Of a stretch of DNA of 64,000 nucleotides, positions 5,141-63,140 are shown piece by piece. The stretch's first letter is position 1. Each line of letters opens with the position of its first letter. The notes under the pieces are model-generated. The model searched no databases. It had not been told where the DNA came from and saw only the letters and a list, made by a program, of their open reading frames with translations. The translations under genes and the position numbers were made by a program. The DNA is from Flavobacteriales bacterium (GTDB lineage Bacteria; Bacteroidota; Bacteroidia; Flavobacteriales_F; PHOS-HE28). The DNA lies in NCBI GenBank assembly GCA_017987115.1, contig JAGNUG010000001.1, forward strand, positions 33,405 to 97,404. Direction: 5' to 3'.

Positions 5141-7042
5141 TCAGTAAGCTCTTACGTTCTTGCCCTCCCGATAGTTGATGAACGCACGGTTCACTACACG
5201 GTTTCCACCCGGTGTGGGATAGTTGCCCGTGAAGTACCAATCACCTAAATGGTCCGGACAAGCGGCGTGCAATCCTTCAATGCTCTGGTAGATCACCTTT
5301 ACCTCAGCTTCAATATCCGGAGGGGTTAACATCTCCGCGATCTTATCGCTGATCTGTTCCGCAGTGAACGGTGCATAGATCGCTTTTACCACATTCTCCT
5401 GCTCGGTGAACGGTCGCCTTACCATCTCAAGGGCGCGATCATAAACGTCGTCGATGATATTCTCTTGCTTGGTCTCTTGCAGTAGCGCAATGGCAGCACG
5501 GAAAGCTGCTAGATCACCCATCTTCGCCATGTCAATGCCGTAACAATCGGGATACCGGATCTGCGGCGCACTGCTTACTACGATGATCCGTTTCGGTCCG
5601 AGCCTATCAAGCATTTTAAGGATGCTCTGCTTCAATGTAGTACCGCGCACAATGCTGTCGTCGATCACCACCAGATCATCCAAACCGCGACGCACACTGC
5701 CATAAGTGATGTCGTAGACGTGTGCTACAAGATCATCGCGTGCGTCATCGGCTGTTATGAACGTGCGCAACTTCGCATCCTTGATCGCCACCTTTTCCAG
5801 ACGCGGTCGTAATGCCAAAATGGATCGGATCTTCTCTCCGGAAGGGTTCGCACCCAATGCAAGGATCCGTCGTTCCTTCAGCTTGTCCAATTGATCATCC
5901 AATTCCTTGAGCATTCCATAGAACGCTACCTCTGCGGTATTGGGAATGAAGCTGAAAACGGTGTTCTCCAGATCATGGTCCACAGCATCCAGAATGGCCG
6001 GACAGACCGATCGACCCAGCGCCATACGCTCTTGGTACACATCACGATCACTGCCGCGACTGAAATAGATCCGTTCAAAACTGCATGAACGTTTTTCCAA
6101 CGGTTCCAGGATCTTTTCTTCACTGAACATTCCATCTTTGCGAATGATCAACGCGCAACCCGGAGTCAATTCGTTCACGTTTTCCGTGTGCAGCGCGAAT
6201 GCTGTTTGAATGGCCGGACGTTCACTCGCTACCACCACAACTTCATCATCGGCATACCAATACGCCGGACGAATTCCCGCTGGATCCCGAAGTACGAACG
6301 CATCACCATGGCCGATCATTCCAGCCAACGCATAGCCGCCATCAAAATCGATCGCACTTTGCTTGAGTATGCTTTGCACATCCATTTTCTCGGCCATGAT
6401 CTTCGTCACTTGCCGATCGTTATATCCTAATTGTTGGTGGAGCTGCACCAAGCGATCGTTCTCCTTATCCAGAAAATGTCCGATCTTCTCCAGAACGGTC
6501 ATCGTGTCGCTGCGTTCCTTAGGATGCTGACCAATGCTCACCAACAGGTCGAAAAGCTCATCGACATTGGTCATGTTGAAATTCCCTGCAACGACGAGGT
6601 TACGCGTGATCCAGTTGTTCAACCGGCGTCTCGGATGGCAATTCTCCTCACCATCCTTCCCGAAGGTGGCATAACGCAAATGACCCATAAGCAATTCACC
6701 CATGAACGGCATACGCTCCTTCAAAGCGGCAACATCGTTCACACTATTCGGATCGCTTGCAACAGTTTCGTTATATCCGCCATGGATCTTTGCAAAGATC
6801 TTTTGGATCGCCTGCTTATCCGTACTACGGGAGCGGTCGATGAAATTGAGACCCGGCGTAGGATCCAATTTTATCGTTGCAACGCCTGCGCCATCCTGAC
6901 CTCGGTTGTGCTGTTTCTCCATCAAGAGATACAACTTATTGAGGCCATAAAGCGGTGTGCCGTACTTCTCCTTGTAATACGCCAATGGTTTCCGCAGGCG
7001 GATCAGGGCAATGCCACATTCATGCTTGATCGCATCGCTCAT
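5141..7042 (-). CDS. purF: Amidophosphoribosyltransferase (long-form PurF)
   Basis: It is a class II glutamine amidotransferase with N-terminal nucleophile Cys after a short propeptide (MSDAIKHECGIALIRL). The PRTase motif VVIDDSIVRGTTLKQSI is present. The ORF is open to 7114 but the Met at 7042 places the Cys near the N-terminus. Confidence 0.8.
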   Translation of the reverse strand: MSDAIKHECGIALIRLRKPLAYYKEKYGTPLYGLNKLYLLMEKQHNRGQDGAGVATIKLDPTPGLNFIDRSRSTDKQAIQKIFAKIHGGYNETVASDPNSVNDVAALKERMPFMGELLMGHLRYATFGKDGEENCHPRRRLNNWITRNLVVAGNFNMTNVDELFDLLVSIGQHPKERSDTMTVLEKIGHFLDKENDRLVQLHQQLGYNDRQVTKIMAEKMDVQSILKQSAIDFDGGYALAGMIGHGDAFVLRDPAGIRPAYWYADDEVVVVASERPAIQTAFALHTENVNELTPGCALIIRKDGMFSEEKILEPLEKRSCSFERIYFSRGSDRDVYQERMALGRSVCPAILDAVDHDLENTVFSFIPNTAEVAFYGMLKELDDQLDKLKERRILALGANPSGEKIRSILALRPRLEKVAIKDAKLRTFITADDARDDLVAHVYDITYGSVRRGLDDLVVIDDSIVRGTTLKQSILKMLDRLGPKRIIVVSSAPQIRYPDCYGIDMAKMGDLAAFRAAIALLQETKQENIIDDVYDRALEMVRRPFTEQENVVKAIYAPFTAEQISDKIAEMLTPPDIEAEVKVIYQSIEGLHAACPDHLGDWYFTGNYPTPGGNRVVNRAFINYREGKNVRAY

Positions 7043-26583: not shown

Positions 26584-26890
26584 GCTTACGCGTGTTCTAC
26601 AATTCTTGGTCGCCGGCGATGGGCTTTCATACCATTGGTAAAGAACCATCCGAAACGCGCAGAGAACCAGCGATCAAATCGGCCGAAGACACTGGTCACT
26701 AAATGAAGTAGGGTGAACATGATGTTGCGGGTTTGTATACCAAATACTGTTTCGTATCAATGGCCACTCCGATCTATTCGCTCTTCGGATAGTCCTTTGC
26801 TGCGGAACAGTATAATAACCCCAACTACATACCGATCAGTATGTGAAAGCCGGATCAGTGGGCAACTTATCTTGAATTGCTACAACCTCA

Positions 26891-31304: not shown

Positions 31305-34300
31305 TTACGGTTGTATTGAGACCCTGTCGGTATAGATACGCTCACCGGCTGTGACGCGCACGAGGTACATGCCACTGGCAAGACCACCATCCAGAGCTAC
31401 CACATTATTCAAGCGACCGTCCTGTGTAAGGAGCTGCTTGCTTAATATGAGTTTTCCGCTCATGTCCATGATCTCAAAGCTCACGGTCTTGATCTCACTA
31501 TCCAGTGAATTGATCACTACGGTGAGTACCGTCCCTTGGTTCGGATTCGGGTACAAGGCGAGTACGCTACTGGCACTTTCCAACAACACATTTTGTTGTC
31601 CACCTGCAACCATTGTATTGATCGTTACAGTGCAGGACTCTCCGGCCTGGCAATAAACGCCGCCTTTGAACGCCTCTACAGTTACGTCGTATGTGCTACC
31701 CGGAGTTAGTGCAGGCGCTATGGCCGCACCCCATCCCAAGCTTACATAGTACGTAGGTACCACACGAACGATCGGAGAAACCAACTCTGCATTGGTGAAG
31801 GTAAACCGGTACTGCGTTGCACCACCAACAGGGCGTGCATACAAGCGATTTGCGCTATTGTTCACAAAATCACGTGTTACGTTGCAGCTCAGGAACTGAG
31901 GGAAACCAGGTACATCGAACAACTTGGTGGGTGGGCAATTGGCCAACGCTTCGTCCCTTGTGAACCGGCAAGCGGGACCATACGCTCCGGCCACACCATT
32001 CACAACACTGCGCACACGAACGTTGAGTTGTACGCCGTTCGGGATCTGATCCACTGCTGCCCAGTTATTGATCTTGGCATGGCATGTACGCGCTGAGCCG
32101 ATGTTCGCAAAGTTGTCCGATACGTTATGACGACGCTGGCGCACATAGCTGTAGGTACCGTTCGGATCGAAGAACAAGAAGTCGTATCCTGAATCCGCAC
32201 CAGCTGCTCCGCCACCGTTGTAGTCCGCTGCAACAGCAGCATCTTCATTGCACACGATGTACTCACCGTTCTTCCAGAAATACTTATCGCAACTTGTAAA
32301 GAGCAGTTCGTTGGCCGATGGCGGAACGCAGAATGGAACTGCTGCCATGCTTGTGGCTCCGGAAGTAAAGTTATCCGTGTTGTCGATCAGGCGAACTCCA
32401 TCCGAAGTACTCAACACGTAACCTCCATCGGTGATGCCATTGCCTCCTGCATCGGTTACAGTAAGATCGTAGCATCCATCAGCAACTGAGAACGTTGCAA
32501 TTTCCATGGATCCTCCTGGTACATCCGCGAACGGTCCGCCGCTCGCAACTGGGGCTCCACCACCAGCTGGTGTAACTTGGAAAGTGACTTCGCTACCGAA
32601 TGCATCCAGATCGAAGGCGAGTGATAACATGTTGTTTCCCATCACCGCTCCTTGGAATTCGAATGCACCGATATCACGCGTTCCGAACAATGGCAAGTTG
32701 CGTTGATCATTCTCCAGCAACGCTGGATCACCTGTGTTGTAGGCTGCACTACTTGTTGATGCAATTGCTTGCGTTTGCGTAATGCCACCGTTATCCGCCA
32801 ATGCACCCAGACCAGGATCTGTTCCAACAACATTCCCATTCACACCGTCGCTGATACCGGAAGCTCCCGTACCATCTTCGAGCAAGGTGAACATTGCTGA
32901 TACGAACGCACCATTCGCATCCGGACCTGTGCCGGCACCTGTAATGCTGTTATCTGCAATGATCGAACTATTACTATTCAACGTTCCCACCATCACATTC
33001 ACACCACCACCGTTATTATCCGCGCTATTGTTTGCGATCGTGGATGCTAGCAATGTCGCTGTTCCACCTTCAACACTTACACCACCGCCATCGTTGGTGG
33101 CCGTGTTGCCGCTAACCGTGCTGTAGTTCACATCCAACGTACCGGTTCCTGGGCCTCCACCTTGCAGAAAAAGACCACCTCCGTCAAGTGCATTGTTACC
33201 GCTTACTGTAGAACGGGTGATGGTCATGGCTCCTGCATTCGAAGCCCAGAGTCCACCACCTTCATTAACGGCCGTATTGCCGGATGCCGTGCTTGTGATG
33301 AAACTTGTAGTACCGGTTCCACTTACATGCACACCACCACCGTTAATGCCTGCATTGTTTCCCATCAACGTAATGTCAGTAAGTGAAGCTGAACCATTGA
33401 AATTCTCAATGGCACCACCTGCACGAGCACATGAGTTGCCCGATAACATGCTACCCGAAATGGTTACTGAACCACCATCGGTCATTACACCACCACCGTT
33501 ACCGGTGTTGATGGGTGCCGTGTTGTTGGTGATCATTGCACCGTTCTGAATGATGAGCGTTCCACCGATGTTGAAAACACCTCCACCTCCTTGGTCGTTG
33601 CCTGCGTTATTTCCTGCGTTCGCCGTATTGCTATCAACGGTAGTTCCGTCGATGGTCATGCTGCCACTTGCATTCCAAAGGCCACCACCTTCTTGACCCG
33701 CTACGTTGTTAGCGAATGTACCACCGTTCACATTGGTGGTTCCAGTTCCGCTTACGTGAATACCACCACCGTTAACTCCGGCCGTGTTACCATCTGCAAC
33801 AGCGGCTCCGCCAACTGTAGAACTGGTGATCGTTACTGTTCCATTGAAGTTCTCGATGCCACCACCTGCACGAGCGCATGAGTTGCCGGATAAAATGCTA
33901 CCCGAAATGGTCACGGATCCACCATCGGTCATTACACCACCACCGTTACCGGTGTTGATGGGTGCCGTGTTGTTGGTGATCATTGCACCGTTCTGAATGA
34001 TGAGCGTTCCACCAATGTTGAAAACACCTCCACCTCCTTGGTCGTTGCCTGCGTTATTTCCTGCGTTCGCCGTATTGCTATCAACGGTAGTTCCGTCGAT
34101 GGTCATGGTGCCACTTGCATTCCAAAGGCCACCACCTTCTTGACCGGCTACGTTGTTAGCGAATGTACCACCGTTCACATTGGTGGTTCCAGTTCCGCTT
34201 ACGTGAATACCACCACCGTTAACTCCGGCCGTGTTACCATCTGCAACAGCGGCTCCGCCAACTGTAGAACTGCTGATCGTTACTGTTCCATTGAAGTTCT

Positions 34301-36203
34301 CGATGCCACCACCTGCACGAGCGCAAGAGTTGCCAGTAAGTGTGCTTCCGGTAATGGTCACGGATCCACCATCGGTCATTACACCACCACCGTTACCGGT
34401 GTTGATGGGTGCCGTGTTGTTGGTGATCATTGCACCGTTCTGAATGATGAGCGTTCCACCGATGTTGAAAACACCTCCACCTCCTTGGTCGTTCCCTGCG
34501 TTATTTCCTGCGTTCGCCGTATTGCTGTCAACAGTGGTTCCGTCGATGGTCATGGTGCCACTTGCATTCCAAAGGCCACCACCTTCTTGACCGGCTACGT
34601 TGTTAGCGAATGTACCACCGTTCACATTGGTGGTTCCAGTTCCGCTTACGTGAATACCACCACCGTTAACTCCAGCCGTGTTACCATCGCCAGCAACCGC
34701 ACCACCTACTGTTCCTCCAGTAATGGTGACCATGCCACCGAAATTCTCGATACCACCACCGGCGCGAGCGCAAGAATTGGATGAGATCGTGCTACCCGTG
34801 ATGGTTACCGTACCGCCGTCGGTCATTACCCCGCCACCATTACCGAGGTTCATCATGGCCACATTGTTAGTGATCATTGCACCGTTCTGAATGATCAGTG
34901 TTCCACCGATGTTGAATACGCCGCCACCACCTTGGTCATTGTTAGCGTTGCTAGCAGCATTGGCCGTGTTGCTCTCAATGAGCGTTGCATCAATGGTCAT
35001 AATGCCGCTGGCATTCCACAAGCCACCGCCTTCTTGCCCTGCGACATTGTTCTGGAAAGTACCACCGTTCACATTGGTGGCACCAGTACCACTTACGTGT
35101 ATGCCACCTCCGTTGATGCCCGCCGTATTGCCATCAGCGACAAGAGCTCCGCCTACGACAGCGGAACTGATGGTTACAGTGGCATTGTTGTTCTCGATAC
35201 CACCACCTGCGCGAGCACATGAGTTCGAGGCAATGAGGCCACCAAGGATGTTCACCGAACCAGCTACGGCCATTATACCACCACCGTTACCGGCGTTGAT
35301 GGGTGCCAAATTGTTCGTGATCACCGTACCGTTCTGAATGATGGTCGAACCACCGTTCTCGAACACGCCACCACCACCTTGATCGTTACCGGCATTGCTG
35401 CCCGCATTGGCCGTGTTCCCATCGATGGTGCAACCATCAATGGTCATGGTGCTACCTGTGTTATTCCAAACACCACCTCCTTCTTGCCCGGCAGCGTTGT
35501 TGGCAATGGTCACACTATTGAAGACTACTGTTGAAGCCGTGGTAACGTGCAGTCCACCACCGTTACCAGGGTTGGGCGTACCTGCTCCGCCGTCCACATC
35601 GTTTCCGCTCAACGAACCTCCCGTCATGATAAGGGAACCGGATGCGATCTCGATTCCTCCACCAGCACGGTTGGCCGAGTTCCCATCAATAGTACATGCA
35701 GTAATGGTTACTGCACCACCGGCTATGAATAGACCACCACCGCTACCACTCACCCCATTGGCCACACTCGAGGTTATACTGGAATTGCTGAGGTTCAATG
35801 TCGTACTCGTGCTCAGAATAGCTCCGCCATCGATCGCAGTACCCATTGTAAGTTGAACTCCATCAATATTTACCGTCCCTGCGTTGCTAAGGGTGAAGAT
35901 GCGGCTGTTCGAGTTACCGTTCAACGTTGTGTTGATCGTACCATTTCCTGTGATCGTTACATCTTCGCTCACGACCAGCTCGCCGGTCAAGAGTATGATG
36001 GGTACACCATTTGTCGTTCCGTCGAATACGATGTCGTCCGCACCTAGGTTAGCGTTCGCATCAAGCACGGCTTGGCGCAAAGAGCCTGGACCAGAGTCCA
36101 GCGAGTTCATTACCGTAAACGTTGCTGCTGAAGAATTAGAAAGGCCCCATAAGGATAGGGCCGATGTCAACAGAAGATTTCGAAGCGTCCTATTCTGATT
36201 CAT
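31305..36203 (-). CDS. Giant secreted parallel beta-helix repeat protein (about 1630 aa) with T9SS type A CTD
   Basis: It has a signal peptide. Gly/Asn-rich beta-helix turns (GGGIHVSGTG..NNVAGQEGGGLWN..) are organised as 149-aa units repeated at least five times, with near-identical 447-bp DNA copies between about 33090 and 35330. The C-terminus is LALYPNPNQG...GMYLVRV. Confidence 0.8.
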   Translation of the reverse strand: MNQNRTLRNLLLTSALSLWGLSNSSAATFTVMNSLDSGPGSLRQAVLDANANLGADDIVFDGTTNGVPIILLTGELVVSEDVTITGNGTINTTLNGNSNSRIFTLSNAGTVNIDGVQLTMGTAIDGGAILSTSTTLNLSNSSITSSVANGVSGSGGGLFIAGGAVTITACTIDGNSANRAGGGIEIASGSLIMTGGSLSGNDVDGGAGTPNPGNGGGLHVTTASTVVFNSVTIANNAAGQEGGGVWNNTGSTMTIDGCTIDGNTANAGSNAGNDQGGGGVFENGGSTIIQNGTVITNNLAPINAGNGGGIMAVAGSVNILGGLIASNSCARAGGGIENNNATVTISSAVVGGALVADGNTAGINGGGIHVSGTGATNVNGGTFQNNVAGQEGGGLWNASGIMTIDATLIESNTANAASNANNDQGGGGVFNIGGTLIIQNGAMITNNVAMMNLGNGGGVMTDGGTVTITGSTISSNSCARAGGGIENFGGMVTITGGTVGGAVAGDGNTAGVNGGGIHVSGTGTTNVNGGTFANNVAGQEGGGLWNASGTMTIDGTTVDSNTANAGNNAGNDQGGGGVFNIGGTLIIQNGAMITNNTAPINTGNGGGVMTDGGSVTITGSTLTGNSCARAGGGIENFNGTVTISSSTVGGAAVADGNTAGVNGGGIHVSGTGTTNVNGGTFANNVAGQEGGGLWNASGTMTIDGTTVDSNTANAGNNAGNDQGGGGVFNIGGTLIIQNGAMITNNTAPINTGNGGGVMTDGGSVTISGSILSGNSCARAGGGIENFNGTVTITSSTVGGAAVADGNTAGVNGGGIHVSGTGTTNVNGGTFANNVAGQEGGGLWNASGSMTIDGTTVDSNTANAGNNAGNDQGGGGVFNIGGTLIIQNGAMITNNTAPINTGNGGGVMTDGGSVTISGSMLSGNSCARAGGAIENFNGSASLTDITLMGNNAGINGGGVHVSGTGTTSFITSTASGNTAVNEGGGLWASNAGAMTITRSTVSGNNALDGGGLFLQGGGPGTGTLDVNYSTVSGNTATNDGGGVSVEGGTATLLASTIANNSADNNGGGVNVMVGTLNSNSSIIADNSITGAGTGPDANGAFVSAMFTLLEDGTGASGISDGVNGNVVGTDPGLGALADNGGITQTQAIASTSSAAYNTGDPALLENDQRNLPLFGTRDIGAFEFQGAVMGNNMLSLAFDLDAFGSEVTFQVTPAGGGAPVASGGPFADVPGGSMEIATFSVADGCYDLTVTDAGGNGITDGGYVLSTSDGVRLIDNTDNFTSGATSMAAVPFCVPPSANELLFTSCDKYFWKNGEYIVCNEDAAVAADYNGGGAAGADSGYDFLFFDPNGTYSYVRQRRHNVSDNFANIGSARTCHAKINNWAAVDQIPNGVQLNVRVRSVVNGVAGAYGPACRFTRDEALANCPPTKLFDVPGFPQFLSCNVTRDFVNNSANRLYARPVGGATQYRFTFTNAELVSPIVRVVPTYYVSLGWGAAIAPALTPGSTYDVTVEAFKGGVYCQAGESCTVTINTMVAGGQQNVLLESASSVLALYPNPNQGTVLTVVINSLDSEIKTVSFEIMDMSGKLILSKQLLTQDGRLNNVVALDGGLASGMYLVRVTAGERIYTDRVSIQP

Positions 36204-50889: not shown

Positions 50890-51061
50890 TGTCGTTGTGC
50901 GTTCGTGTATGTCAAATATAAGCCTTCACAACCAGTTGTTTGAACGGCTGCACAACTGTACGCGCTTTGGCAGATCACTCCTGCGCTAACACTGTACAAG
51001 GTACCCGTATTCTTGGTACGGTGTGCAACTAGTGAAACAACGAACCCACCCCACACAACGC

Positions 51062-51093
51062 AAAAAACCCCGGCACAACGGCCGGGGCTTTTT
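51062..51093 (-). terminator. Bidirectional rho-independent terminator
   Basis: The stem-loop is CCCCGGC-ACAACG-GCCGGGG, flanked by AAAAAA 5' and CTTTTT 3'. It lies about 55 nt past the stop at 51147. Confidence 0.7.
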
Positions 51094-51146: not shown

Positions 51147-51767
51147 TTATGCAGCGCGTACTATTGCAGGATCGCTCTTAAGGCCTTCGCCCGCTGCGCC
51201 AATTGCGCTAATAGCGAACCAATAGGGCTTGTAGCTCTCCAAATTATCCACCGTGTGGTTCACCTTGGTGGTAATGGCTACAACTGCCCAGCTGCTGAAC
51301 TCGGCCGGGTCCTTGTCCGTCATCCACACATGGTAGGCACTTGTACCGTTCTCACCGGTCCAACGCAACTGCGCTTGGCCTTGCTTACCGGTCATCTTCG
51401 CGATCTTTATCTCCGGTGTGCCGGGTAACCCAATACGCTCCGGCTGCTTGCGCAGGTCGAAACCGCTGCTTTCCAGCATTACGCGATCGCCCAAGCAAAC
51501 ACTGCGCACATAGTCCGCCTGTGCCCGCAGCATTTCACCGATATCGAGTGCTAATGCATCGCGCATCAGCTTACTCTGCCTGCTGCCCGCAGTAGCCGCT
51601 TGTATGGCTACTTCGAACTCATCGGCCTTTGCCGTCATGGTTGCCAAGCTCACCACGGGTGTGGGGAAGAAGGCATTGCCCGTTAACTTGGTTATTACGT
51701 TACGTACCAGCGCAAGCAACGCAATAGGGATCAATTTGTAGAGGGATAGTTTGATATTGCTTTTCAT
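51147..51767 (-). CDS. Hypothetical protein with C-terminal fibronectin type III-like domain
   Basis: The N-terminus is hydrophobic. An FN3-like region is present (QAQLRWTGENGTSAYHVWMTDKD...YKPYWFAISAIGAAG). Confidence 0.45.
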   Translation of the reverse strand: MKSNIKLSLYKLIPIALLALVRNVITKLTGNAFFPTPVVSLATMTAKADEFEVAIQAATAGSRQSKLMRDALALDIGEMLRAQADYVRSVCLGDRVMLESSGFDLRKQPERIGLPGTPEIKIAKMTGKQGQAQLRWTGENGTSAYHVWMTDKDPAEFSSWAVVAITTKVNHTVDNLESYKPYWFAISAIGAAGEGLKSDPAIVRAA

Positions 51768-52019
51768 CGTTTTTGTTTTAGTCCCCGGCAGAACCGGGGT
51801 GGTTAGGGCCTCTCAACGCCGCCAATTCCAGAAGGTTCAGAACCGCTCCTGGTTATGCCAATTCCGCATATTCGCATACTGCGGAACAGGCCTGTACCAT
51901 GCGGGCAATTCCAGATCCTATGCGGAATCGGAATAGTTTATTCCAGTTCGGAATAATGGGCCGTGTTCGCATGCACATGCCTCTTAAGCATACCTCGTGT
52001 TGAAGTGTCTAGTGGTAAT

Positions 52020-52364
52020 ACTTCAATCTAAGTCGTCCATGACCTCAACATAAGTCGACCCATACTTCAACATAAGGTGACCATGACCTTAACATAAGTC
52101 GCCCCATACTTCAACATAAGGTGACCATGACCTCAACATAAGTCGACCCATACTTCAACATAAGGTGACCATGACCTCAACCTAAGTTGACCCATACTTC
52201 AACATAAGGTGACCACGACCTAAACATAAGTTGCCCTATACTTCAACATAAGGTGACCATGACCTCAACATAAGTCGACCCATACTTCAACATAAGGTGA
52301 CTATGACCTCAACATAAGTTGCCCTATACTTCAACATAAGGTGACCATGACCTAAACCTAAGTA
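52020..52364. repeat. Tandem direct-repeat array: 8 x 44 bp, each made of two related 22-bp half-units (16 x 22 bp)
   Basis: The unit is ACTTCAACATAAGGTGACCATG + ACCTCAACATAAGTCGACCCAT, repeated head-to-tail with only point substitutions. There are no spacers. Stop codons occur in all frames. Confidence 0.9.
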
Positions 52365-52436: not shown

Positions 52437-52754
52437 CTACGCGCTAGGCGGTGCGTCTCCTGCTGGTGGTGGTATGCCCAACGCCTGTTGCCTGCTTTCA
52501 TAGTTGAGCTGTTGCCTGCGTGGGTGTTGCTCCATTAGGAACTCACCGATGTCGCAACCGAACACACGTGCATAGCAGACCGCACTGTGCAAGCCCAGTT
52601 CATGCCGCCCATTTTCCGTTTTGCTGATCACGCTTTGGCAAATACCTACCTCCAGCGCCAAGGCGGTCTGTTTCCAATTATACTGTTTACGCAATTCGTA
52701 CAAACGGGCGCCATACATTTCATTGATCGCTTTCTTGTCTTTTTTAGAGGCCAT
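52437..52754 (-). CDS. XRE-family helix-turn-helix transcriptional regulator
   Basis: The HTH_3 motif is QTALALEVGICQSVISKTENG. The Met at 52754 was chosen. The C-terminal tail is Pro-rich. Confidence 0.65.
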   Translation of the reverse strand: MASKKDKKAINEMYGARLYELRKQYNWKQTALALEVGICQSVISKTENGRHELGLHSAVCYARVFGCDIGEFLMEQHPRRQQLNYESRQQALGIPPPAGDAPPSA

Positions 52755-52997
52755 CTTGGATCTGTGTTCGTAAGGAAAAGGGGCTCCGCGCCAAAGTGGG
52801 TGAAAGGATGAACCTTTTCCCAACTCCCGAAATACCTGTTTATGGGTATTTTTTAGTGCGCGCTATAGAGTAAGGATGAGGTGTGTGGGTTTTGTAAGGG
52901 ATAAAGTACATGGAGTAGACCGCTATTTGCTTTTGCGCAAACCACAAAACGCAAGGCATGTGCCGTGCATTAATATGGTTGGTCTAAGTTTACCAAC

Positions 52998-54659
52998 GTG
53001 ATGACGAAAACTGCCGAGAAACCGAAGCCGAAAGGCAAAACTGCCAAGCAACCAAAAGCCACTGAGCACGCCACGCTCCAGCGTGGCCGCACTGAAAATG
53101 CCGGGCAGGCCGAAGGCCGGGAGCCCGGCGAACCCAGCAACGGTGGTAAGAAGAAAAGGGCCACGCTGGAGCGTGGTGAGCCCAGCAAGAAGAACAATGG
53201 TTCCGCTTTCGAGCAAGCTTTTAAGAACATCGATGATGCGCTCTGGAAGGACCCCGGCTGCACCAGCGAACTGGACTACACCGAGCAGACCAGCTGGATA
53301 CTCTTTTTAAAATACCTCGAAGACCTGGAGGAGACCAAGCAGATGGATGCCGAGTTGCAAGACAAGAAGTATGTGCCCATTATTGCAAGCAGTTTCCGTT
53401 GGCCGGTATGGGCTTGCCCGAAGGACAAGGAAGGAAAGCTGGACCACCACAAAGCCCTGAGCGGAACGGACCTTGTGGAGTTCGTGAACCAGCAGCTCTT
53501 CCCTTACCTGAAGGGCTTCAAGCAGAAGGCCACCGGACCCAACACCATCGAATACAAGATCGGCGAGATCTTCTCGGAGATCAACAACAAGGTGCAGAGC
53601 GGCTACACCCTGCGCGATGTGCTGGACCATGTGGATGCCCTGCACTTCCGCAGCCAGGAGGAGAAGCACGAGCTGAGCCACCTCTACGAGGCCAAGATCA
53701 AGAACATGGGCAATGCCGGGCGCAACGGCGGCGAGTACTACACCCCGCGCCCGCTCATCAAAGCCATTGTGCAAGTGGTGGACCCACAAGTGGGCGAAAC
53801 CGTGTATGACGGTGCCGTGGGCAGCGCGGGCTTCCTGTGCGAGGCCTTCGACCACATGAGCGCCAGCGCCAAGAGCACCAGCGCGCAGAAGACCTTGCAG
53901 GAAAAAACCTTCTACGGCAAGGAGAAGAAGAGCCTGGCCTATGTGATCGGCATCATGAACATGATCCTGCACGGCATCGAGGCGCCCAACATCATCCACA
54001 CCAACACGCTCAGCGAGAACCTCGGCGACATACAGCCGAAGGACCAATACGATGTGGTGCTGGCCAACCCGCCCTTCGGTGGCAAGGAGCGGCCGGAAGT
54101 GCAGCAGAACTTCCCGATCAAGACGGGCGAGACCGCCTTCCTCTTCCTACAGCACTTCATCAAAAGCCTGAAGGCGGGCGGCCGCGCGGGCATCGTGATC
54201 AAGAACACCTTCTTGAGCAACACCGACAACGCCAGCATCAGCTTGCGGCGCAAGTTGCTGGAGGACTGCGACCTGCACACCATCCTGGACATGCCCAGCG
54301 GCACCTTCCAAGGGGCGGGCGTAAAGACCGTGGTGCTCTTTTTTGAGAAAGGGAAGAAGACGCGGAAGACTTGGTACTACCAGCTGGACCCCGGCCGCAA
54401 CATGGGCAAGACCAACCCGCTGAACGAGGCGGACATGGCCGAGTTCGTAAAGCTGGCGAAGACCAAGGGCGATAGCGCGAACAGTTGGTGTGTGAACACG
54501 AGCGAGGTGAACACGGATACCTACGACCTCAGTGCGAAGAACCCGAACGGACCGGAGGAAGCCCCGCTGCGCGACCCTAAGACCATCCTGCACGAAATGC
54601 GCGACCTGGATGCCAAGACCAAGGGCTTGTTGGACAACATCATGACGCTGCTGAAATGA
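52998..54659 (+). CDS. hsdM: Type I restriction-modification system methyltransferase subunit HsdM, with a Lys-rich REP-derived N-terminal extension
   Basis: It is an N6-adenine MTase with motif I GSAGFL and motif IV NPPFGGKE. HsdM-type TRD-contact regions are present (YYTPRPLIKAIV). The first 65 aa or so have no HsdM counterpart and contain translated REP palindromes. Confidence 0.85.
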   Translation: MMTKTAEKPKPKGKTAKQPKATEHATLQRGRTENAGQAEGREPGEPSNGGKKKRATLERGEPSKKNNGSAFEQAFKNIDDALWKDPGCTSELDYTEQTSWILFLKYLEDLEETKQMDAELQDKKYVPIIASSFRWPVWACPKDKEGKLDHHKALSGTDLVEFVNQQLFPYLKGFKQKATGPNTIEYKIGEIFSEINNKVQSGYTLRDVLDHVDALHFRSQEEKHELSHLYEAKIKNMGNAGRNGGEYYTPRPLIKAIVQVVDPQVGETVYDGAVGSAGFLCEAFDHMSASAKSTSAQKTLQEKTFYGKEKKSLAYVIGIMNMILHGIEAPNIIHTNTLSENLGDIQPKDQYDVVLANPPFGGKERPEVQQNFPIKTGETAFLFLQHFIKSLKAGGRAGIVIKNTFLSNTDNASISLRRKLLEDCDLHTILDMPSGTFQGAGVKTVVLFFEKGKKTRKTWYYQLDPGRNMGKTNPLNEADMAEFVKLAKTKGDSANSWCVNTSEVNTDTYDLSAKNPNGPEEAPLRDPKTILHEMRDLDAKTKGLLDNIMTLLK

Positions 54660-55753
54660 GAACCGCACATCCTTGGCCATTGGAAAGATTCGGCGAGGTA
54701 CTTGAGATCCGAAACGGTCGCAACCAACGTGAGGTTGAGAACGCTTCCGGACCTTATCCGATTTACGGCAGTGGTGGCGTCATGGGCTACGCCTCCGACT
54801 ATATCTGCGAAGCCAATACGACCATCATTGGACGTAAAGGCTCGATCAATAACCCGCTTTATGTTGAAGAGCGGTTCTGGACAGTTGACACTGCATTTGG
54901 CCTACATCACAAAGAGCGGCTTCATCCCCGCTTTTTGTATTACTACTGTTTGCATTATGATTTCAGCAAGCACAATCGCGGGACAACGATTCCAAGTCTG
55001 GTAAAGACAGAGTTACTGGAGATACGAATGCCCATTCCGCCCCTCCCCGAACAACAGCGGATCGTGGGGAAGTTGGATGCGGCCTTTGCAGCGCTCACGG
55101 AGGCGCAGGCCCACGTGGAGCGCAACCGGGCCAACGCGCGGGAGCTGTTCGAGAGCTATTTGAATGGGGTGCGCAACGAAATATCTTCAAATTGGCCTGA
55201 GAAATCTTTAGGGGAAGTTTGTGAGTATCAGAATGGAAAAGCACATGAAAAATGCATTGACCCAAATGGAAAATACATTGTCATAAACTCTAAATTCGTT
55301 TCTACTGAAGGCAAAAAATTTAAAAGGTCAAAACATAACTTGTTGCCGTTGGTACCTAACGATATCGTAATGGTCCTAAGTGACGTGCCGAATGGCAGAG
55401 CTTTAGCTAAATGCTTTTTAGTAGATAAGGCCAATACATATACATTGAATCAGCGAATATGCGTATTTCGTTCAAGCCATTTTGACACTAACTTTCTATT
55501 CTTTCAGCTAAACCGCAACAAGCACTTTTTAGCTTTCAACAACGGTGAGAATCAAACCAATATGCGGTTGAATCAGGTTCTTAGTTGCCCATTATTTGTT
55601 CCGCCTATTGCTGAGCAGAAAGAATTTGAATCAAGGCTTCGTAAAATGTCGGAAAAAGCTGAACACCTCGAAACCACCTACGCCCAAAAGCTGAGCGAGC
55701 TGGAGGAGTTGAAGAAAAGTATATTGGGTGCGGCGTTTAGGGGGGAGTTATGA
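54656..55753 (+). CDS. hsdS: Type I R-M specificity subunit HsdS
   Basis: Two target-recognition domains are separated by conserved helical spacers (LPEQQRIVGKLDAAFAALTEAQ, LFVPPIAEQKEFE). It is coupled with 4-nt overlaps to both hsdM and the downstream ORF. Confidence 0.8.
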   Translation: MRTAHPWPLERFGEVLEIRNGRNQREVENASGPYPIYGSGGVMGYASDYICEANTTIIGRKGSINNPLYVEERFWTVDTAFGLHHKERLHPRFLYYYCLHYDFSKHNRGTTIPSLVKTELLEIRMPIPPLPEQQRIVGKLDAAFAALTEAQAHVERNRANARELFESYLNGVRNEISSNWPEKSLGEVCEYQNGKAHEKCIDPNGKYIVINSKFVSTEGKKFKRSKHNLLPLVPNDIVMVLSDVPNGRALAKCFLVDKANTYTLNQRICVFRSSHFDTNFLFFQLNRNKHFLAFNNGENQTNMRLNQVLSCPLFVPPIAEQKEFESRLRKMSEKAEHLETTYAQKLSELEELKKSILGAAFRGEL

Positions 55754-56823
55754 AGCAGTACATTTACACTGGGCTCGCCGGGCTCCAGCCCGGCTCTTCA
55801 GCCACTACTGGCAATAGTCGGTTCGCCACGCTCCAGCGTGGCTCTTCAATACAGGCCAAGCTAGAGCTTGGCGAACCCAGCAATAGTGCCAAGCTGGAGC
55901 TTGGCGAACCCAGTGTTGGTGCAGTTGGTAATAGTGCCAAGCTGGAGCTTGGCGAACCCAGTGTTGGTGCAGTTGGTAATAGTGCCAAGCTGGAGCTTGG
56001 CGAGCCCAGTGGTGGTGCAGTTGGTAGTAGTGCCAAGCTGGAGCTTGGCGAACCCAGTGGTGGTGCAGCTGGTAATAGTGCCAAGCTGGAGCTTGGCGAG
56101 CCCAGTGGGGAGCCCAGTGGTGAATTGAAGTGGACGGACCGGGGTTATATGCCACACGTCGATGGCCAACATTTGATCCAACACGTTAGCTATCATCTAG
56201 CGGATAGTTTGCCGAAGGAGGCGCTGGAGCAGATGAGTGTTCAATTGAAAAGCCTACCTCCGAAGTTGCGCGATGCGGAGAAGGAAAAACGTATTGCGGC
56301 GTACATCGATGCAGGAAAAGGCAGTTGTGTGCTGCGTGTTCCGGAGATCGCTGAGATGGTACAGAACGCATTCCTGTTGTTCCATGGTGAGCGGTACATC
56401 TTGCATGCGTGGTGTGTGATGCCTAACCATGTGCATGTCCTCTTTCAACCAGTGCAAGGTTGGTCAATGAGCAAGATCGTGGCTTCGTGGAAGTCCTATA
56501 CCGGGCGGCGCATCAGTGAGTATTTGAAATCCACTGGGCTCGCCGGGCTCCCGGCCTATGGCCTGCCCGGCTCTTCAGCTACTGCTAACAACAGTCGGTA
56601 CGCGCTCCAGCGTGGCACTTCCTCTTCTAAACACTCCCCGATCTGGCATCGCGAGTACTGGGACCGCTATATTCGGGACCGCACGCATTATTCGAACGTT
56701 GTGAAATACATCCACGAGAATCCGGTGAAGGCCAAGTTGGTATCGAGGCCGGAGGATTGGAAATGGTCGTCTGCATTTGCTGGGCTCGCCACTCACCAGC
56801 GTGGCTCTTCCTCTGAACAATGA
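55750..56823 (+). CDS. rayT: REP-associated tyrosine transposase (RayT, IS200/IS605 Y1 family) with REP-derived in-frame segments
   Basis: The HuH motif is HAWCVMPNHVHVLF. The C-terminal motif WHREYWDRYIRDRTHYSNVVKYIHENPVKAKLV is typical of RayT/TnpA_REP. The core probably starts at the Met at 56149. The first 133 codons are translated REP repeats. Confidence 0.75.
   Translation: MKQYIYTGLAGLQPGSSATTGNSRFATLQRGSSIQAKLELGEPSNSAKLELGEPSVGAVGNSAKLELGEPSVGAVGNSAKLELGEPSGGAVGSSAKLELGEPSGGAAGNSAKLELGEPSGEPSGELKWTDRGYMPHVDGQHLIQHVSYHLADSLPKEALEQMSVQLKSLPPKLRDAEKEKRIAAYIDAGKGSCVLRVPEIAEMVQNAFLLFHGERYILHAWCVMPNHVHVLFQPVQGWSMSKIVASWKSYTGRRISEYLKSTGLAGLPAYGLPGSSATANNSRYALQRGTSSSKHSPIWHREYWDRYIRDRTHYSNVVKYIHENPVKAKLVSRPEDWKWSSAFAGLATHQRGSSSEQ
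55769..56105. repeat. REP/BIME-like palindrome cluster: composite 80-bp element plus 6 tandem 48-bp units carrying GCCAAGCTGGAGCTTGGC
   Basis: The 18-bp palindromes fit GCCNNGCTSSAGCNNGGC. Instances are GCCGGGCTCCAGCCCGGC at 55777, GCCACGCTCCAGCGTGGC at 55825, and six GCCAAGCT(GG/AG)AGCTTGGC copies with 48-bp period. Further copies lie at 53070, 53160, about 56535-56612, 56780-56810 and 57210. Confidence 0.85.
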
Positions 56824-59153
56824 ACGAAGCCGAAACACGCGCCGAACTGATCGACCCCGCACTACTTGCGGCGGGCTGGGGCGTTGTGGAGGGCAGTCGC
56901 GTGCGGCGTGAGTACATTATTACCCTGGGCCGTTTGCAGGGCGCTGCTGGCAAACGCAACACCCCGGAGATCGCCGACTACGTGCTGGAATACAAAGGCC
57001 GTATGGTCGCCGTGATAGAGGCAAAGAAGGCAAGTCTACCGGTAAGTCAAGGATTGGGCCAAGCCAAGAAGTATGCAGATAAATTGAGGGTGCGGCACGC
57101 ATACAGCACCAACGGCAAAGGCATCTACGCCTTGGACATGCTGGTAGGCCGTGAGGGTGACATTGCAGGATGGCCTACACCGGATGAGTTGTGGAAGTTG
57201 GTACAACCGGCCACGCTGGAGCGCGGCCAGCCCAACGTTAATTGGACGGACCGTTTCGGTCTTGTACCCTTCGAAGACAAAAGCGGTAGCTGGCAACCGC
57301 GCTACTACCAAGACCTCGCCATTCAACGCGTGTTGGATAAGATCGCAGAGGGTAAGGATCGCATCTTGCTTACGCTTGCTACCGGCACGGGCAAAACGGC
57401 GATCGCATTCCAGATCGCTTGGAAATTATTCGAGAGCCGATGGAATTTGAAACGCGATGGCGAACGTCGTCCGCGCATTCTGTTTTTAGCGGATCGGAAT
57501 ATTCTTGCCAACCAAGCATTCAATTCATTCAGCGCATTTCCGGAGGATGCCTTGGTGCGCATCGATCCGGCGAGCATCAAGAAGAAAGGCAAGGTGCCGA
57601 CCAACGGCAGCATCTTCTTTACCATCTTCCAAACGTTCATGTCAGGACCGGATGATACACCCTACTTCGGTGATTATCCAGTTGACTTCTTTGATCTGAT
57701 CATCATCGATGAGTGCCACCGCGGTGGTGCCAATGATGAAAGCTCGTGGCGCGATATCCTCACCTATTTCAAACCGGCAGTGCAACTGGGCCTCACCGCA
57801 ACACCCAAGCGCGACCAGAATGTGGATACCTACAAGTACTTCGGTGATCCGGTGTATGTGTATTCGCTCAAAGAAGGGATCAACGACGGGTACCTAACGC
57901 CATTCAAAGTGCGGCAGATCACCACCACGTTGGATGAATACACCTACACGAATGATGATGGGGTGGAAGAAGGCGAGGCCGAACAAGGGCGTACCTACAG
58001 CGAAGCAGATTTCAACAAGATCATCGAGATCAAGGAACGGGAAGCCTATCGCGTAAGGACCTTCATGGACATGATCGATCAGCGGCAGAAAACGTTGGTG
58101 TTCTGTGCCACACAATTGCACGCCTTGGCGGTGCGCGATCTGATCAACCAATACAAGACCAGCCCGGACCCGCACTACTGCGAGCGGGTTACAGCGGATG
58201 ACGGCAAGATCGGCGAACAACACCTGCGCAATTTTCAGGACAACGAACACACCATCCCTACCATCCTCACCACCAGTCAAAAACTGAGCACCGGTGTTGA
58301 TGCCCGCAACATCCGCAACATCGTATTGATGCGGCCGGTGAACAGTATGATCGAGTTCAAGCAGATCGTTGGTCGCGGTACGCGCTTGTATGATGGCAAG
58401 GACTATTTCACCATCTATGATTTCGTTAAAGCGCATCAGCATTTCCAAGACCCTGAATGGGATGGTGAGCCGCTGGATCCGGGTCCTCCACGGGAGCCGA
58501 AGATCAGCGCACCGTACCCGCCTCCCGATCCGAATGACCAATTGGTCGATCCACCAGGAGAGGTGGAGCGCAAGATCCTACGTATAAAACTTGCAGATGG
58601 CAAGGAGCGGCAGATCCAGCACACATCAAAAACATCGTTCTGGAGTCCGGATGGTACACCGATCAGTGCACCGGAATTCATCAAGTTGCTATTTGGAGAA
58701 TTGCCGCAATTGTTCAAGAATGAAGATGAGCTACGCGCGTTGTGGAGCCGGCCGGATACCCGCAAAAAGTTGTTGGAAGAACTCGGTGAGAAAGGCTTCC
58801 CAATGAATCAATTGGAAGACCTGCAACGCTTGATCGATGCAGAGAAAAGCGACCTCTTCGATGTACTCGCCTACGTGGCTTACAACAATGCCACGCAACT
58901 GCGCACGGAGCGAGCAAACGCAGCCCGCAACCACTTCGATACCTATGCGGACAAGCAACGCGCATTCCTCGATTTTGTACTACAGCATTACGTGCGGGAC
59001 GGAGTAAAGGAACTGGACCAAGAGAAACTACCGCAACTGCTCTTGCTCAAATACAAGACGCTACCCGATGCCACAAAAGAGCTCGGCGACATAGCAGCCA
59101 TCCGCGAAACCTTCTTCGGGTTCCAGCAGTGGTTGTATGGGGGAGTAGGGTAA
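56820..59153 (+). CDS. hsdR: Type I restriction enzyme R subunit HsdR
   Basis: The N-terminal nuclease-domain start (MNEAETRAELIDPALLAAGW) is canonical. SF2 helicase motifs are LATGTGKT (I) and DECHRG (II). An ATLERG palindrome insertion lies at 57210. Confidence 0.85.
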   Translation: MNEAETRAELIDPALLAAGWGVVEGSRVRREYIITLGRLQGAAGKRNTPEIADYVLEYKGRMVAVIEAKKASLPVSQGLGQAKKYADKLRVRHAYSTNGKGIYALDMLVGREGDIAGWPTPDELWKLVQPATLERGQPNVNWTDRFGLVPFEDKSGSWQPRYYQDLAIQRVLDKIAEGKDRILLTLATGTGKTAIAFQIAWKLFESRWNLKRDGERRPRILFLADRNILANQAFNSFSAFPEDALVRIDPASIKKKGKVPTNGSIFFTIFQTFMSGPDDTPYFGDYPVDFFDLIIIDECHRGGANDESSWRDILTYFKPAVQLGLTATPKRDQNVDTYKYFGDPVYVYSLKEGINDGYLTPFKVRQITTTLDEYTYTNDDGVEEGEAEQGRTYSEADFNKIIEIKEREAYRVRTFMDMIDQRQKTLVFCATQLHALAVRDLINQYKTSPDPHYCERVTADDGKIGEQHLRNFQDNEHTIPTILTTSQKLSTGVDARNIRNIVLMRPVNSMIEFKQIVGRGTRLYDGKDYFTIYDFVKAHQHFQDPEWDGEPLDPGPPREPKISAPYPPPDPNDQLVDPPGEVERKILRIKLADGKERQIQHTSKTSFWSPDGTPISAPEFIKLLFGELPQLFKNEDELRALWSRPDTRKKLLEELGEKGFPMNQLEDLQRLIDAEKSDLFDVLAYVAYNNATQLRTERANAARNHFDTYADKQRAFLDFVLQHYVRDGVKELDQEKLPQLLLLKYKTLPDATKELGDIAAIRETFFGFQQWLYGGVG

Positions 59154-63024: not shown

Positions 63025-63140
63025 TAAACCCCCGCAGGCTCTTCATCTGCGAGCCCCTGCGTTTTTAAACCCGCGCAGGGTCTTCGGTTTCGAGACCCTA
63101 AACCGCCGCAAGGTCTTCGACTTCGAGACCTTGCGTTCTT
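63025..63140. repeat. Three tandem degenerate hairpin repeats of about 33-42 bp
   Basis: Each unit is TAAACC-[CG]CGCAGG[CG]TCTTC-loop-[TC]CGAG[AC]CC-TGCG. The third forms a perfect 10-bp stem (CGCAAGGTCT/AGACCTTGCG). The first is followed by TTTTT. Confidence 0.6.

Follow-up and report, generated by a model that had tools for sequence, protein, structure and literature searches.

What keeps a tandem array of 22-bp repeats, without spacers and in strict register, in the gap between two small genes of a bacterial chromosome, and what might it do there? The question is raised by a 64,000-nt stretch from a Flavobacteriales bacterium (assembly GCA_017987115.1, contig JAGNUG010000001.1, positions 33,405 to 97,404), which we refer to as the window and in whose coordinates all positions are given unless another locus is named. 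The array lies between a gene for a small XRE-family helix-turn-helix (HTH) protein and a gene for a 206-aa protein with an FN3 domain, and these three parts constitute a previously undescribed cassette that recurs in uncultured Flavobacteriales; no description of an XRE-array-FN3 module was found in the literature. Long phased non-coding arrays whose position and period are conserved, but not their sequence, are rare in bacterial chromosomes outside of replication origins, centromeres, clustered regularly interspaced short palindromic repeats (CRISPR) and type III antitoxins, and the array in the window has the defining features of none of these classes.

Tandem Repeats Finder (TRF) describes the array in the window as 7.9 copies of a 44-bp period (90% matches, 0% indels, score 552), and in a second reading as 15.2 copies of a 22-bp period. 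It contains 15 full 22-bp half-sites and a truncated sixteenth that closes the array (15.7 units). Two subtypes of the unit, A and B, alternate along its length, so that the 44-bp period is a higher-order repeat of the 22-bp unit; in the orientation of the cassette, which is that of the minus strand, they read cCTTATGTTGAAGTATgGGTCg / ACTTATGTTGAgGTcaTGGTCA. The A half is a homologue of the B half, the units abut without spacers, and the register shows zero net indel. With up to three mismatches allowed, the consensus given in an earlier interpretation of the same DNA, made without database searches (the sequence-only reading), matches 15 in-phase sites that are spaced by exactly 22 bp. Outside of the array, the 64-kb window holds a single match to this consensus, with three mismatches, on the minus strand at 26860. 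For the scan of the consensus, shuffled sequences predict 0.06 hits.

The array is real, and an independent assembly agrees with this. Logan unitig L007 (SRR28148165, 982 bp) is identical to the flank at every base and breaks off within the first unit, which is how a de Bruijn assembler is expected to behave at a true tandem repeat. The sequence-only reading had described a spacer-less 22-bp array that lies between the XRE and FN3-protein genes and is distinct from a CRISPR array, and in these respects it was right: the TRF and motif-scan results give the units and their spacing, the gene positions give the location, and the units abut where a CRISPR array would have spacers. It had also proposed that a period of two helical turns places all of the sites on one side of the DNA. 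The approximate two-turn phasing stands, while the exact single face does not, since 22 bp corresponds to 2.1 turns of B-DNA and each unit therefore drifts by ∼34 degrees relative to the one before it; a single exact face would be obtained only if the DNA were slightly underwound.

Several other features of the array in the window were considered. A coding function was rejected, as the unit contains stop codons on both strands and no open reading frame (ORF) of at least 40 aa spans the array. An inverted copy of the unit core lies beside the array (own-motif z = 3.9; Table 1), but an inverted terminal unit was rejected as a general feature because it is seen in just 3 of 16 loci. The only sigma-70-like promoter match of the region (52303-52330, plus strand, ATGACC-16-TATACT) falls within the array and is antisense to the cassette, and a weaker version of it occurs in every 44-bp unit. 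This match is probably meaningless, since Bacteroidota promoters differ from that consensus.

Other loci (designated with the prefix L) were fetched by exact-protein look-up of homologues of the 206-aa protein, together with one metagenome scan. More than 20 diverged loci with such a homologue have a tandem array with an exact 22-bp period at the same position of the cassette. The gene-free gap between the XRE gene and the 206-aa gene is 450-920 bp across loci, and in every locus with enough upstream sequence it holds an array with a period of 22 bp or a multiple of this (44, 66, 88, 110 or 132), the exception being L011/L012. Complete arrays have 8.5 to 21.5 units, and none has fewer than 8. 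Period-22 arrays are absent elsewhere, both in the ∼300 kb of fetched loci and in the 64-kb window, and the outer flanks of the cassette vary from locus to locus. The sequence-only reading had allowed for an assembly artefact without counterpart in related genomes, or for a minisatellite family scattered between genes. What is found is different: relatives have the array (L011/L012 as a remnant) and the motif is not scattered in the window or the fetched loci. Exact-motif scans of species-representative genomes and viral contigs returned only single chance hits and no arrays.

Cassette loci occur on chromosomal contigs of up to 1.6 Mb. Most contigs with the 206-aa gene are shorter than 3 kb, and many of them break 250-800 bp upstream of this gene, at the repeat. 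The array breaks short-read assemblies, and the cassette is therefore under-represented in metagenome-assembled genomes (MAGs).

The period and position of the array are thus fixed across loci, and its sequence is specific to the lineage. When the arrays are compared by circular position matrices, most of them prove unrelated in unit sequence from one locus to another, and most pairs are no closer than column-shuffled controls; for the array in the window, the best score against any other is 9.6, and the 95th percentile of the null distribution is 9.8. Three clusters of loci share an array type (L013/L019/L023/L038, L018/L021/L027/L028 and L008/L010). The 206-aa homologue of L013 is just 46-48% identical to those of L019, L023 and L038, yet the arrays are alike (scores of 11.4-13.4, where the 99th percentile of the null is 10.7). 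The opposite case is represented by L008/L020 and L016/L017, whose arrays are similar only at background level despite close proteins (83% and 87% identity, respectively). By these comparisons, some lineages have kept their array type over long periods while others have exchanged it abruptly, which is not as smooth neutral drift predicts. Such discordance between array and protein is what one would expect if specificity switches. The XRE proteins evolve rapidly (23-55% identity, with 70% for the closest pair), and the FN3 proteins evolve slowly (41-85% identity).

Within arrays, the register is maintained strictly. In 17 of 18 arrays it is exact from the first to the last third, and a total length of 6284 bp contains ∼825 substitutions and ∼25 indel positions. 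The copy number is polymorphic: L040 and L041, which encode an identical protein, have 16.7 and 19.9 units, respectively, and L013 and L014, which are assemblies of a single organism, show a difference of 66 bp, or three units. A short core is shared by many of the otherwise dissimilar arrays. In 10 of 20 arrays, half or more of the units contain the tetranucleotide CATG (null expectation 1.2, z = 8.2), and its density is 26 per kb inside arrays versus 5 per kb in the flanks. ATG and CAT are enriched about equally, and so the signal is a palindromic, double-strand one and does not reflect start codons. Palindromic 4-mers as a class are marginally enriched (p = 0.03-0.05). An 11-bp half-period, with one core per helical turn, was considered and found not to be robust.

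Table 1. Features of the cassette and its surroundings in the window. Coordinates are window positions; the strand is given where one was assigned.
Feature	Position	Strand	Description
GC-rich hairpin with T-runs on both strands	51058-51087		Terminator scan, 51068-51087 on the plus strand; minus-strand T-run read from sequence
206-aa protein gene	51147-51767	minus	Last gene of the cassette; N-terminal three-helix bundle and C-terminal FN3 domain
5'-leader hairpin	51783-51799	minus	CCCCGG-ttctg-CCGGGG, followed by an A-rich stretch and the ATG; read from sequence
Promoter-like block	51815-51839	minus	TGAAC (51839-51835), 16-nt spacer, CGTT (51818-51815); 51 nt upstream of the ATG
Operator-like palindromes	51862-51955		TTCCGCATATTCGCATACTGCGGAA (51862-51886) and TATTCCAGTTCGGAATA (51939-51955); upstream of the -35; read from sequence
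Inverted unit core	51992-52006		ACCTCGTGTTGAAGT versus ACTTCAACATAAGGT; 12 bp past the gene-proximal end of the array; repeat pairs I1-I7, 87% complementary
Tandem array	52018-52363	minus (cassette orientation)	15.7 x 22 bp, or 7.9 x 44-bp A/B units; TRF, motif scan and register print-out
XRE-family HTH gene	52437-52754	minus	105 aa from the ATG; first gene of the cassette; Pfam HTH_3 E 4.8e-9, HTH_19 E 1.7e-7
Palindrome AAATACC-N8-GGTATTT	52830-52851		In the divergent XRE/hsdM intergenic region; read from sequence

The XRE gene, the array and the 206-aa gene are all on the minus strand of the window, so that the cassette runs from right to left in window coordinates. The order is XRE gene, a gap of 73 bp, array, a leader of ∼250 bp and the 206-aa gene. 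The ORF of the XRE gene, when called mechanically, reaches a TTG at 52823, and the protein matches transcriptional regulators in PHROG (about 2e-8). A homologous small HTH gene is found upstream of the array in 13 of the 14 loci of the first batch that have enough sequence, as well as in L039, L040/L041 and L043. The distance from the XRE stop codon to the start of the array ranges from 6 to 250 bp across loci, and is only 6-15 bp in four of them. In 14 of 15 loci this interval lacks an intrinsic terminator. Transcription of the XRE gene therefore almost certainly runs on into the array, which forms the tail of its message, and for the same reason an array with bound protein would stand in the path of read-through from the XRE gene.

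A palindrome upstream of the XRE gene in the window (52830-52851; Table 1) is a candidate auto-operator for the XRE protein and is unrelated to the array unit. A comparable repeat, GGGTATGTAGAAATACATACC x 2.6, lies upstream of the XRE gene of L008. One clade has a second short repeat, AAGCC...GGCC, with a period of ∼13-16 bp (L019 3532-3710, L038 ∼4940-5113, L013 ∼5290-5470 and L023 661-689). In L019 it precedes the XRE gene, in L023 it separates this gene from the array, and in L013 and L038, which lack the XRE gene, it lies directly upstream of the array; this repeat may be an operator cluster. In many of the XRE proteins examined for this feature (L008, L015, L018, L019, L020, L023 and L039), the HTH is followed by a beta-strand-like motif (ITITF, YTVVVNT, FTLVVNT, VQVTF) and then by a proline-rich tail, and this motif could be a docking strand for the FN3 sheet.

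On its other side, the array is followed by a leader of 196-599 nt (148 nt in L043). Aligned across 18 loci (alignment A2), the 135 nt that precede the ATG contain the block CGT(T), in which G is invariant and C and T are at least 90% conserved, followed by ...GCA(A/G)GCCCCGGATC. In 13 of 19 loci, CGT is preceded at a distance of 16-17 nt by a pentamer of the AAC type, such as GGAAC, TGAAC or GCAAC. We take this predicted promoter-like block to be shaped like a -35/-10 pair of the extracytoplasmic function (ECF) sigma type, and the array would thus sit upstream of the probable promoter of the 206-aa gene. Farther upstream, in the place that corresponds to the operator-like palindromes of the window, other loci have TATTCC-N4-6-GGAATA or GATCCATGCG palindromes. 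The leader hairpin also has counterparts, at a fixed position and with a different stem (GGATC...GATCC, with short-loop forms in L016 and L017).

The product of the last gene is modelled by AlphaFold2 with a mean pLDDT of 90.9 as a three-helix bundle joined to an FN3 sandwich. Foldseek matches in PDB and BFVD are confined to the FN3 half, the Pfam fn3 match is below threshold (E 0.0027), and searches of PHROG and PADLOC with the protein gave no match. According to the model, it is not a nuclease, a Rep protein or a recognisable DNA-binding fold. The family comprises 67 homologues, of which the named ones are exclusively MAG proteins of Flavobacteriales, and in a profile search of 1.84 billion representatives the full-length relatives are all compact (∼205 aa), the other matches being giant multi-FN3 proteins. 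In the family alignment (A1), the C-terminal end ...RAA is nearly invariant, with A205 and A206 at least 90% conserved (window 51147-51155). This ending resembles C-terminal degradation tags, which hints at a proteolytically unstable protein. The GC-rich hairpin beyond the gene is likely a bidirectional terminator that ends it.

For the function of the array we prefer, with somewhat less than even confidence, the reading that it is a double-stranded-DNA, helically phased protein-binding platform of the cassette. A sequence-specific DNA-binding protein would load side by side, with one copy per 22 bp (about two helical turns), and the loaded copies would form a cooperative nucleoprotein filament placed after the XRE gene and ahead of the downstream gene's promoter. 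The prime candidate for the binder would be the fast-evolving XRE protein of the cassette itself, with an unlinked factor as the alternative. Such a filament could sequester the regulator and thereby give a sharp concentration threshold, or it could block or insulate read-through from the XRE gene toward the FN3 gene. That a protein binds the array, which protein this is, and what the regulatory consequence would be are points that we infer. In favour of this reading we count the anatomy that is kept while the sequence turns over, the strict register, the array types that differ by lineage, the shared CATG core, the equality of the signals on the two strands, and the place of the array in the path of XRE read-through.

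Two known systems resemble such a platform in part. At Pptx, BvgA~P is bound as six dimers, 22 bp apart on one helical face, and their individual sites are weak, so that function comes from multiplicity (PMC7250471). The array shares with the BvgA stacks of Pptx and Pfha, which line up dimers of an HTH protein, the 22-bp spacing, which is held in exact register in nearly all arrays, and the location upstream of a promoter, here a probable one. The BvgA stacks differ in that they have three to six sites that are not near-identical tandem copies and the last of which abuts the -35, whereas here there are 16 units, the array in the window ends 179 bp from the -35-like element, and the phase relative to the promoter is not conserved. 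BldC oligomerises head-to-tail and cooperatively on direct repeats that are variable in number (PMC5859096). In BldC, as in the cassette, a small HTH protein is associated with asymmetric direct repeats; the BldC repeats, however, are 9 bp long and few, and BldC is MerR-like, while the protein of the cassette is an XRE protein that is only a candidate for the array binder. XRE proteins usually bind palindromes as dimers. Since the array units are mostly asymmetric, a classical XRE dimer on a palindrome is not indicated, and a BldC-like head-to-tail mode would be needed. An impression, gained by eye, that the units are palindromic operators failed the column-shuffle control and was dropped.

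A number of observations weigh against a protein-binding platform, and particularly against the XRE protein as its ligand. An autoregulating XRE protein would be expected to bind upstream of its own gene, but there the array motif scores no better than chance (z ∼0, ranks 2-13 of 13). It is equally lacking from the locus's own leader, where an iteron-plus-operator layout would place it (mean rank 8.2 of 17), and words common to the leader and the region upstream of the XRE gene do not exceed those in cross-locus controls (p = 0.32). Dyad symmetry of the units is significant relative to a column-shuffle control in only 3 of 18 loci. L013 and L038 have intact, well-homogenised arrays without any XRE gene, and L018 and L028 have similar arrays and XRE proteins that are 26% identical. 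Co-variation with the array does not single out the XRE protein (partial Mantel p = 0.046 for XRE versus 0.013 for FN3). With respect to the promoter, in 10 of 13 loci the array stops 142-186 bp short of the -35-like element, so that a stack would not abut it, and the ATG core keeps no constant helical phase relative to the -10 anchor (Rayleigh R = 0.16, n = 9). Finally, L011/L012 have a degenerate quasi-periodic remnant in place of the array; at this site (L011 5420-5790, and also in L012), the XRE and 206-aa genes are kept, 9-16 of 22 positions match per unit, and TRF makes no call. These two loci are a natural case of a decayed array. The suggestion of the sequence-only reading that the array is a high-copy binding site for the adjacent XRE protein is kept as the leading candidate, and is weakened by the lack of the motif upstream of the XRE gene and in the leader, by the mostly asymmetric units and by the two loci that have no XRE gene.

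Other explanations draw on some of the same observations. Because the array is very probably transcribed, it might act as RNA, in which case the 3' tail or read-through of the XRE mRNA would be a multivalent repeat RNA that scaffolds, sponges or neutralises a protein, possibly the 206-aa protein. ToxI antitoxin repeats and CsrB-type sponge RNAs are loose analogues. Type III toxin-antitoxin systems in general have a direct-repeat array upstream of a small protein gene, co-vary by lineage and are often found in defence islands, and the tandem array of the cassette is likewise located upstream of, and co-oriented with, a small protein gene, as in toxIN, cptIN and tenpIN, with a lineage-specific sequence. 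The defence-gene surroundings described below would fit the logic of toxin-antitoxin or abortive infection, and the ...RAA C-terminus, by our own interpretation, hints at regulated proteolysis. The correspondence ends with the details of the parts. Type III systems have repeats of 34-45 nt in 2-5.5 copies, whereas those of the cassette are 22 or 44 nt in 8-22 copies; their order is repeat-terminator-toxin, whereas no terminator-like hairpin lies between array and gene in 14 of 15 loci, and array and gene are instead parted by a leader of ∼250 nt with its conserved promoter-like block. The 206-aa protein, a helical bundle plus FN3, is not an endoribonuclease fold, has no nuclease or ToxN/CptN/TenpN similarity, and has no hit in Pfam or PADLOC. 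At the level of the RNA itself, folding was compared with column-permuted arrays, a null that keeps repetitiveness and composition. The mean excess is the same on the two strands (z = -0.94 sense, -0.88 antisense), which argues for a weak self-complementarity of the double strand and not for a strand-specific RNA structure, and the array in the window folds no better than its permuted controls (z = +0.65 sense, -0.28 antisense). Rfam gave nothing relevant, at a permissive E-value for the window and at gathering thresholds for 17 loci, and the CATG enrichment, being palindromic, is a double-strand feature. An RNA function has, in our view, a low but appreciable probability. An iteron origin, or a partition centromere of the sopC/parC type, would similarly account for direct repeats next to a regulator gene; here the array would belong to an integrated plasmid, integrative and conjugative element (ICE) or satellite, and the XRE protein would be the initiator or centromere-binding protein. 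Direct repeats with a period of 22 bp have the spacing of classic iterons (R6K, pPS10). Locally, no segment is lower in GC than the array (39-45%), and the neighbourhood is that of a variable island. F sopC consists of 12 x 43-bp spacer-less repeats directly downstream of sopB, the gene of its binding protein, which closely matches an XRE gene followed by 8 x 44 bp; in the window the array starts 73 bp after the small XRE gene, whose product is a binder in candidacy only. Like sopC, P1 incA and the R6K iterons, the array has in-phase direct repeats (43-44 or 19-22 bp in those cases) that are lineage-specific and lie beside a DNA-binding-protein gene, but unlike them it is part of a chromosomal cassette without a ParA or Rep partner. 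No gene for Rep, ParA/ParM, TubZ, a relaxase or an integrase is present in the module or its immediate flanks at any locus, and the 206-aa protein has no winged-helix Rep fold and belongs to no Rep family by Pfam or fold comparison. The protein family has no match by tblastn in 72,556 plasmids (PLSDB) or 50,697 phages (INPHARED), and none in IMG/VR contigs; the loci are found on chromosomal contigs. The window contains one DnaA box (TTWTNCACA, at 63140; 5.6 expected in 64 kb) and none within 10 kb of the array, and there is no AT-rich unwinding element (local GC 39-63%). The sequence-only reading had put forward an iteron-type or integrated plasmid or ICE origin; this evidence does not support that proposal, and we consider a role as origin or centromere very unlikely.

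The remaining explanation requires little or no function. The array could be a selfish or neutral minisatellite, possibly the core of an old BrickBuilt-like MITE (miniature inverted-repeat transposable element) that was inserted once between the two genes and kept by unequal crossing-over; it would be inherited with the cassette and have at most incidental promoter or insulator effects. BrickBuilt of Porphyromonas gingivalis is a spacer-less 23-nt tandem repeat of 1-22.8 copies that is always intergenic, with conserved and variable positions and with leader and tail flanks of ∼300 nt, and it is present as 19 dispersed, species-specific copies per genome that have terminal inverted repeats (PMC4596501). 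It is anatomically the nearest ordinary explanation, as both arrays occur in Bacteroidota, are intergenic and without spacers, have 22- to 23-nt repeats in up to ∼22 copies with conserved and variable unit positions, and have structured flanks. Several traits of the arrays are indeed satellite-like, namely the higher-order repeats (44, 66, 110), the decayed edge units and the differences in copy number between strains; L011/L012 show that an array can degenerate, and all direct tests for a binding partner were negative. Within the window and the fetched loci, the distribution is nevertheless different from that of BrickBuilt, since the cassette has one array, always between the same two genes, in deeply diverged genomes, and each lineage has its own unit. 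Insertions of MITEs are as a rule dispersed and confined to one species. The array has the same position in more than 20 loci, with proteins down to 41-48% identity and unrelated outer flanks, and has no second copy in the window or the fetched loci, an amount of sequence in which only ∼2-3 extra copies would be expected at the density of BrickBuilt. No terminal inverted repeats bracket it, the sole inverted pairs being derived from the unit. The 22-bp period and its register persist despite saturating sequence divergence, complete arrays of fewer than 8 units do not occur, and the deep conservation of an array type in one clade, together with the shared CATG core, argues for constraint. We give a minisatellite with little function a low probability, equal to that of an RNA function, and some probability is assigned to none of these explanations.

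The surroundings of the cassette provide a second line of information on what it might be for. Of 12 independent long contexts, 8 have R-M (restriction-modification) or other defence genes on the XRE side of the cassette, which agrees with the placement of the array, in the sequence-only reading, at the edge of an R-M island. In the window, the XRE gene has as its neighbour a divergent type I R-M operon, which consists of hsdM (at 52998), hsdS, an IS200-like Y1_Tnp ORF and hsdR. Type I R-M genes are also beside the cassette in L019 and L039, with hsdM being directly divergent from the XRE gene in the window and in L019. L008 and L010 have type ISP enzymes or methyltransferases, L038 has an MmeI-like enzyme together with Mrr, L030 has a type IIG enzyme (PADLOC E 8.5e-130) and L013 has Dsr1 (E = 0). 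The contexts of L011, L031, L040/L041 and L043 have no R-M or defence genes. As the flanking defence systems vary, the cassette marks one edge of a slot with variable defence cargo. Two small proteins are dedicated to the array, and the contents of the adjoining slot differ between genomes, being type I, type ISP or type IIG R-M systems, or Dsr1.

A broader proposal, which we put forward as tentative and would not ourselves expect to hold in full, is that the cassette is an unrecognised Flavobacteriales system tied to R-M/defence hotspots. The phase-locked, lineage-specific array would be its essential nucleic-acid component, either as a DNA platform or as a transcribed repeat, and would partner the cassette proteins to sense or control something connected with the neighbouring defence cargo. 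If this is true, the system might, for example, act as a threshold switch, or as a specificity pair of an immunity-like kind whose diversity arises through switching of the array type. A functional array would represent a new cis-element or protein module, possibly a regulator or marker of defence hotspots in an uncultured lineage, and would offer a case from nature of control by multi-site titration or by a filament.

The type I R-M operon of the window has repeats of its own. A 16-nt palindrome, CCACGCTSSAGCGTGG, is present with at most two mismatches in 11 copies at 53071-57226, where 0.05 are expected. All of these are within the ORFs of the operon, i.e., in the N-terminus of hsdM (ATLQRG / ATLERG), the IS200-like ORF and hsdR, and they look like palindromes of the repetitive extragenic palindrome (REP) type that were inserted in frame into coding sequence. 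The IS200-like Y1_Tnp ORF (55750-56823), which resembles REP-associated tyrosine transposases (RAYTs), lies between hsdS and hsdR and includes a tandem repeat of 48 bp x 4.7 (55882-56108) that encodes ...AKLELGEPS... units built round the CCACGCTSSAGCGTGG palindrome. Y1_Tnp genes are also near the cassette in L040 and L043.

Additional gene types recur near the cassette in other loci. HIRAN-domain genes are found upstream of it in L030 (2931-3446) and downstream of it in L039 (7207-7809), which are unrelated loci, and L019 and L038 each have a Na+/H+ exchanger gene after the cassette. Elsewhere in the window, a much longer tandem repeat (447 bp x 4.7, 84% matches) occupies 33394-35508, and presumably encodes the repeated domains of a big secreted protein.

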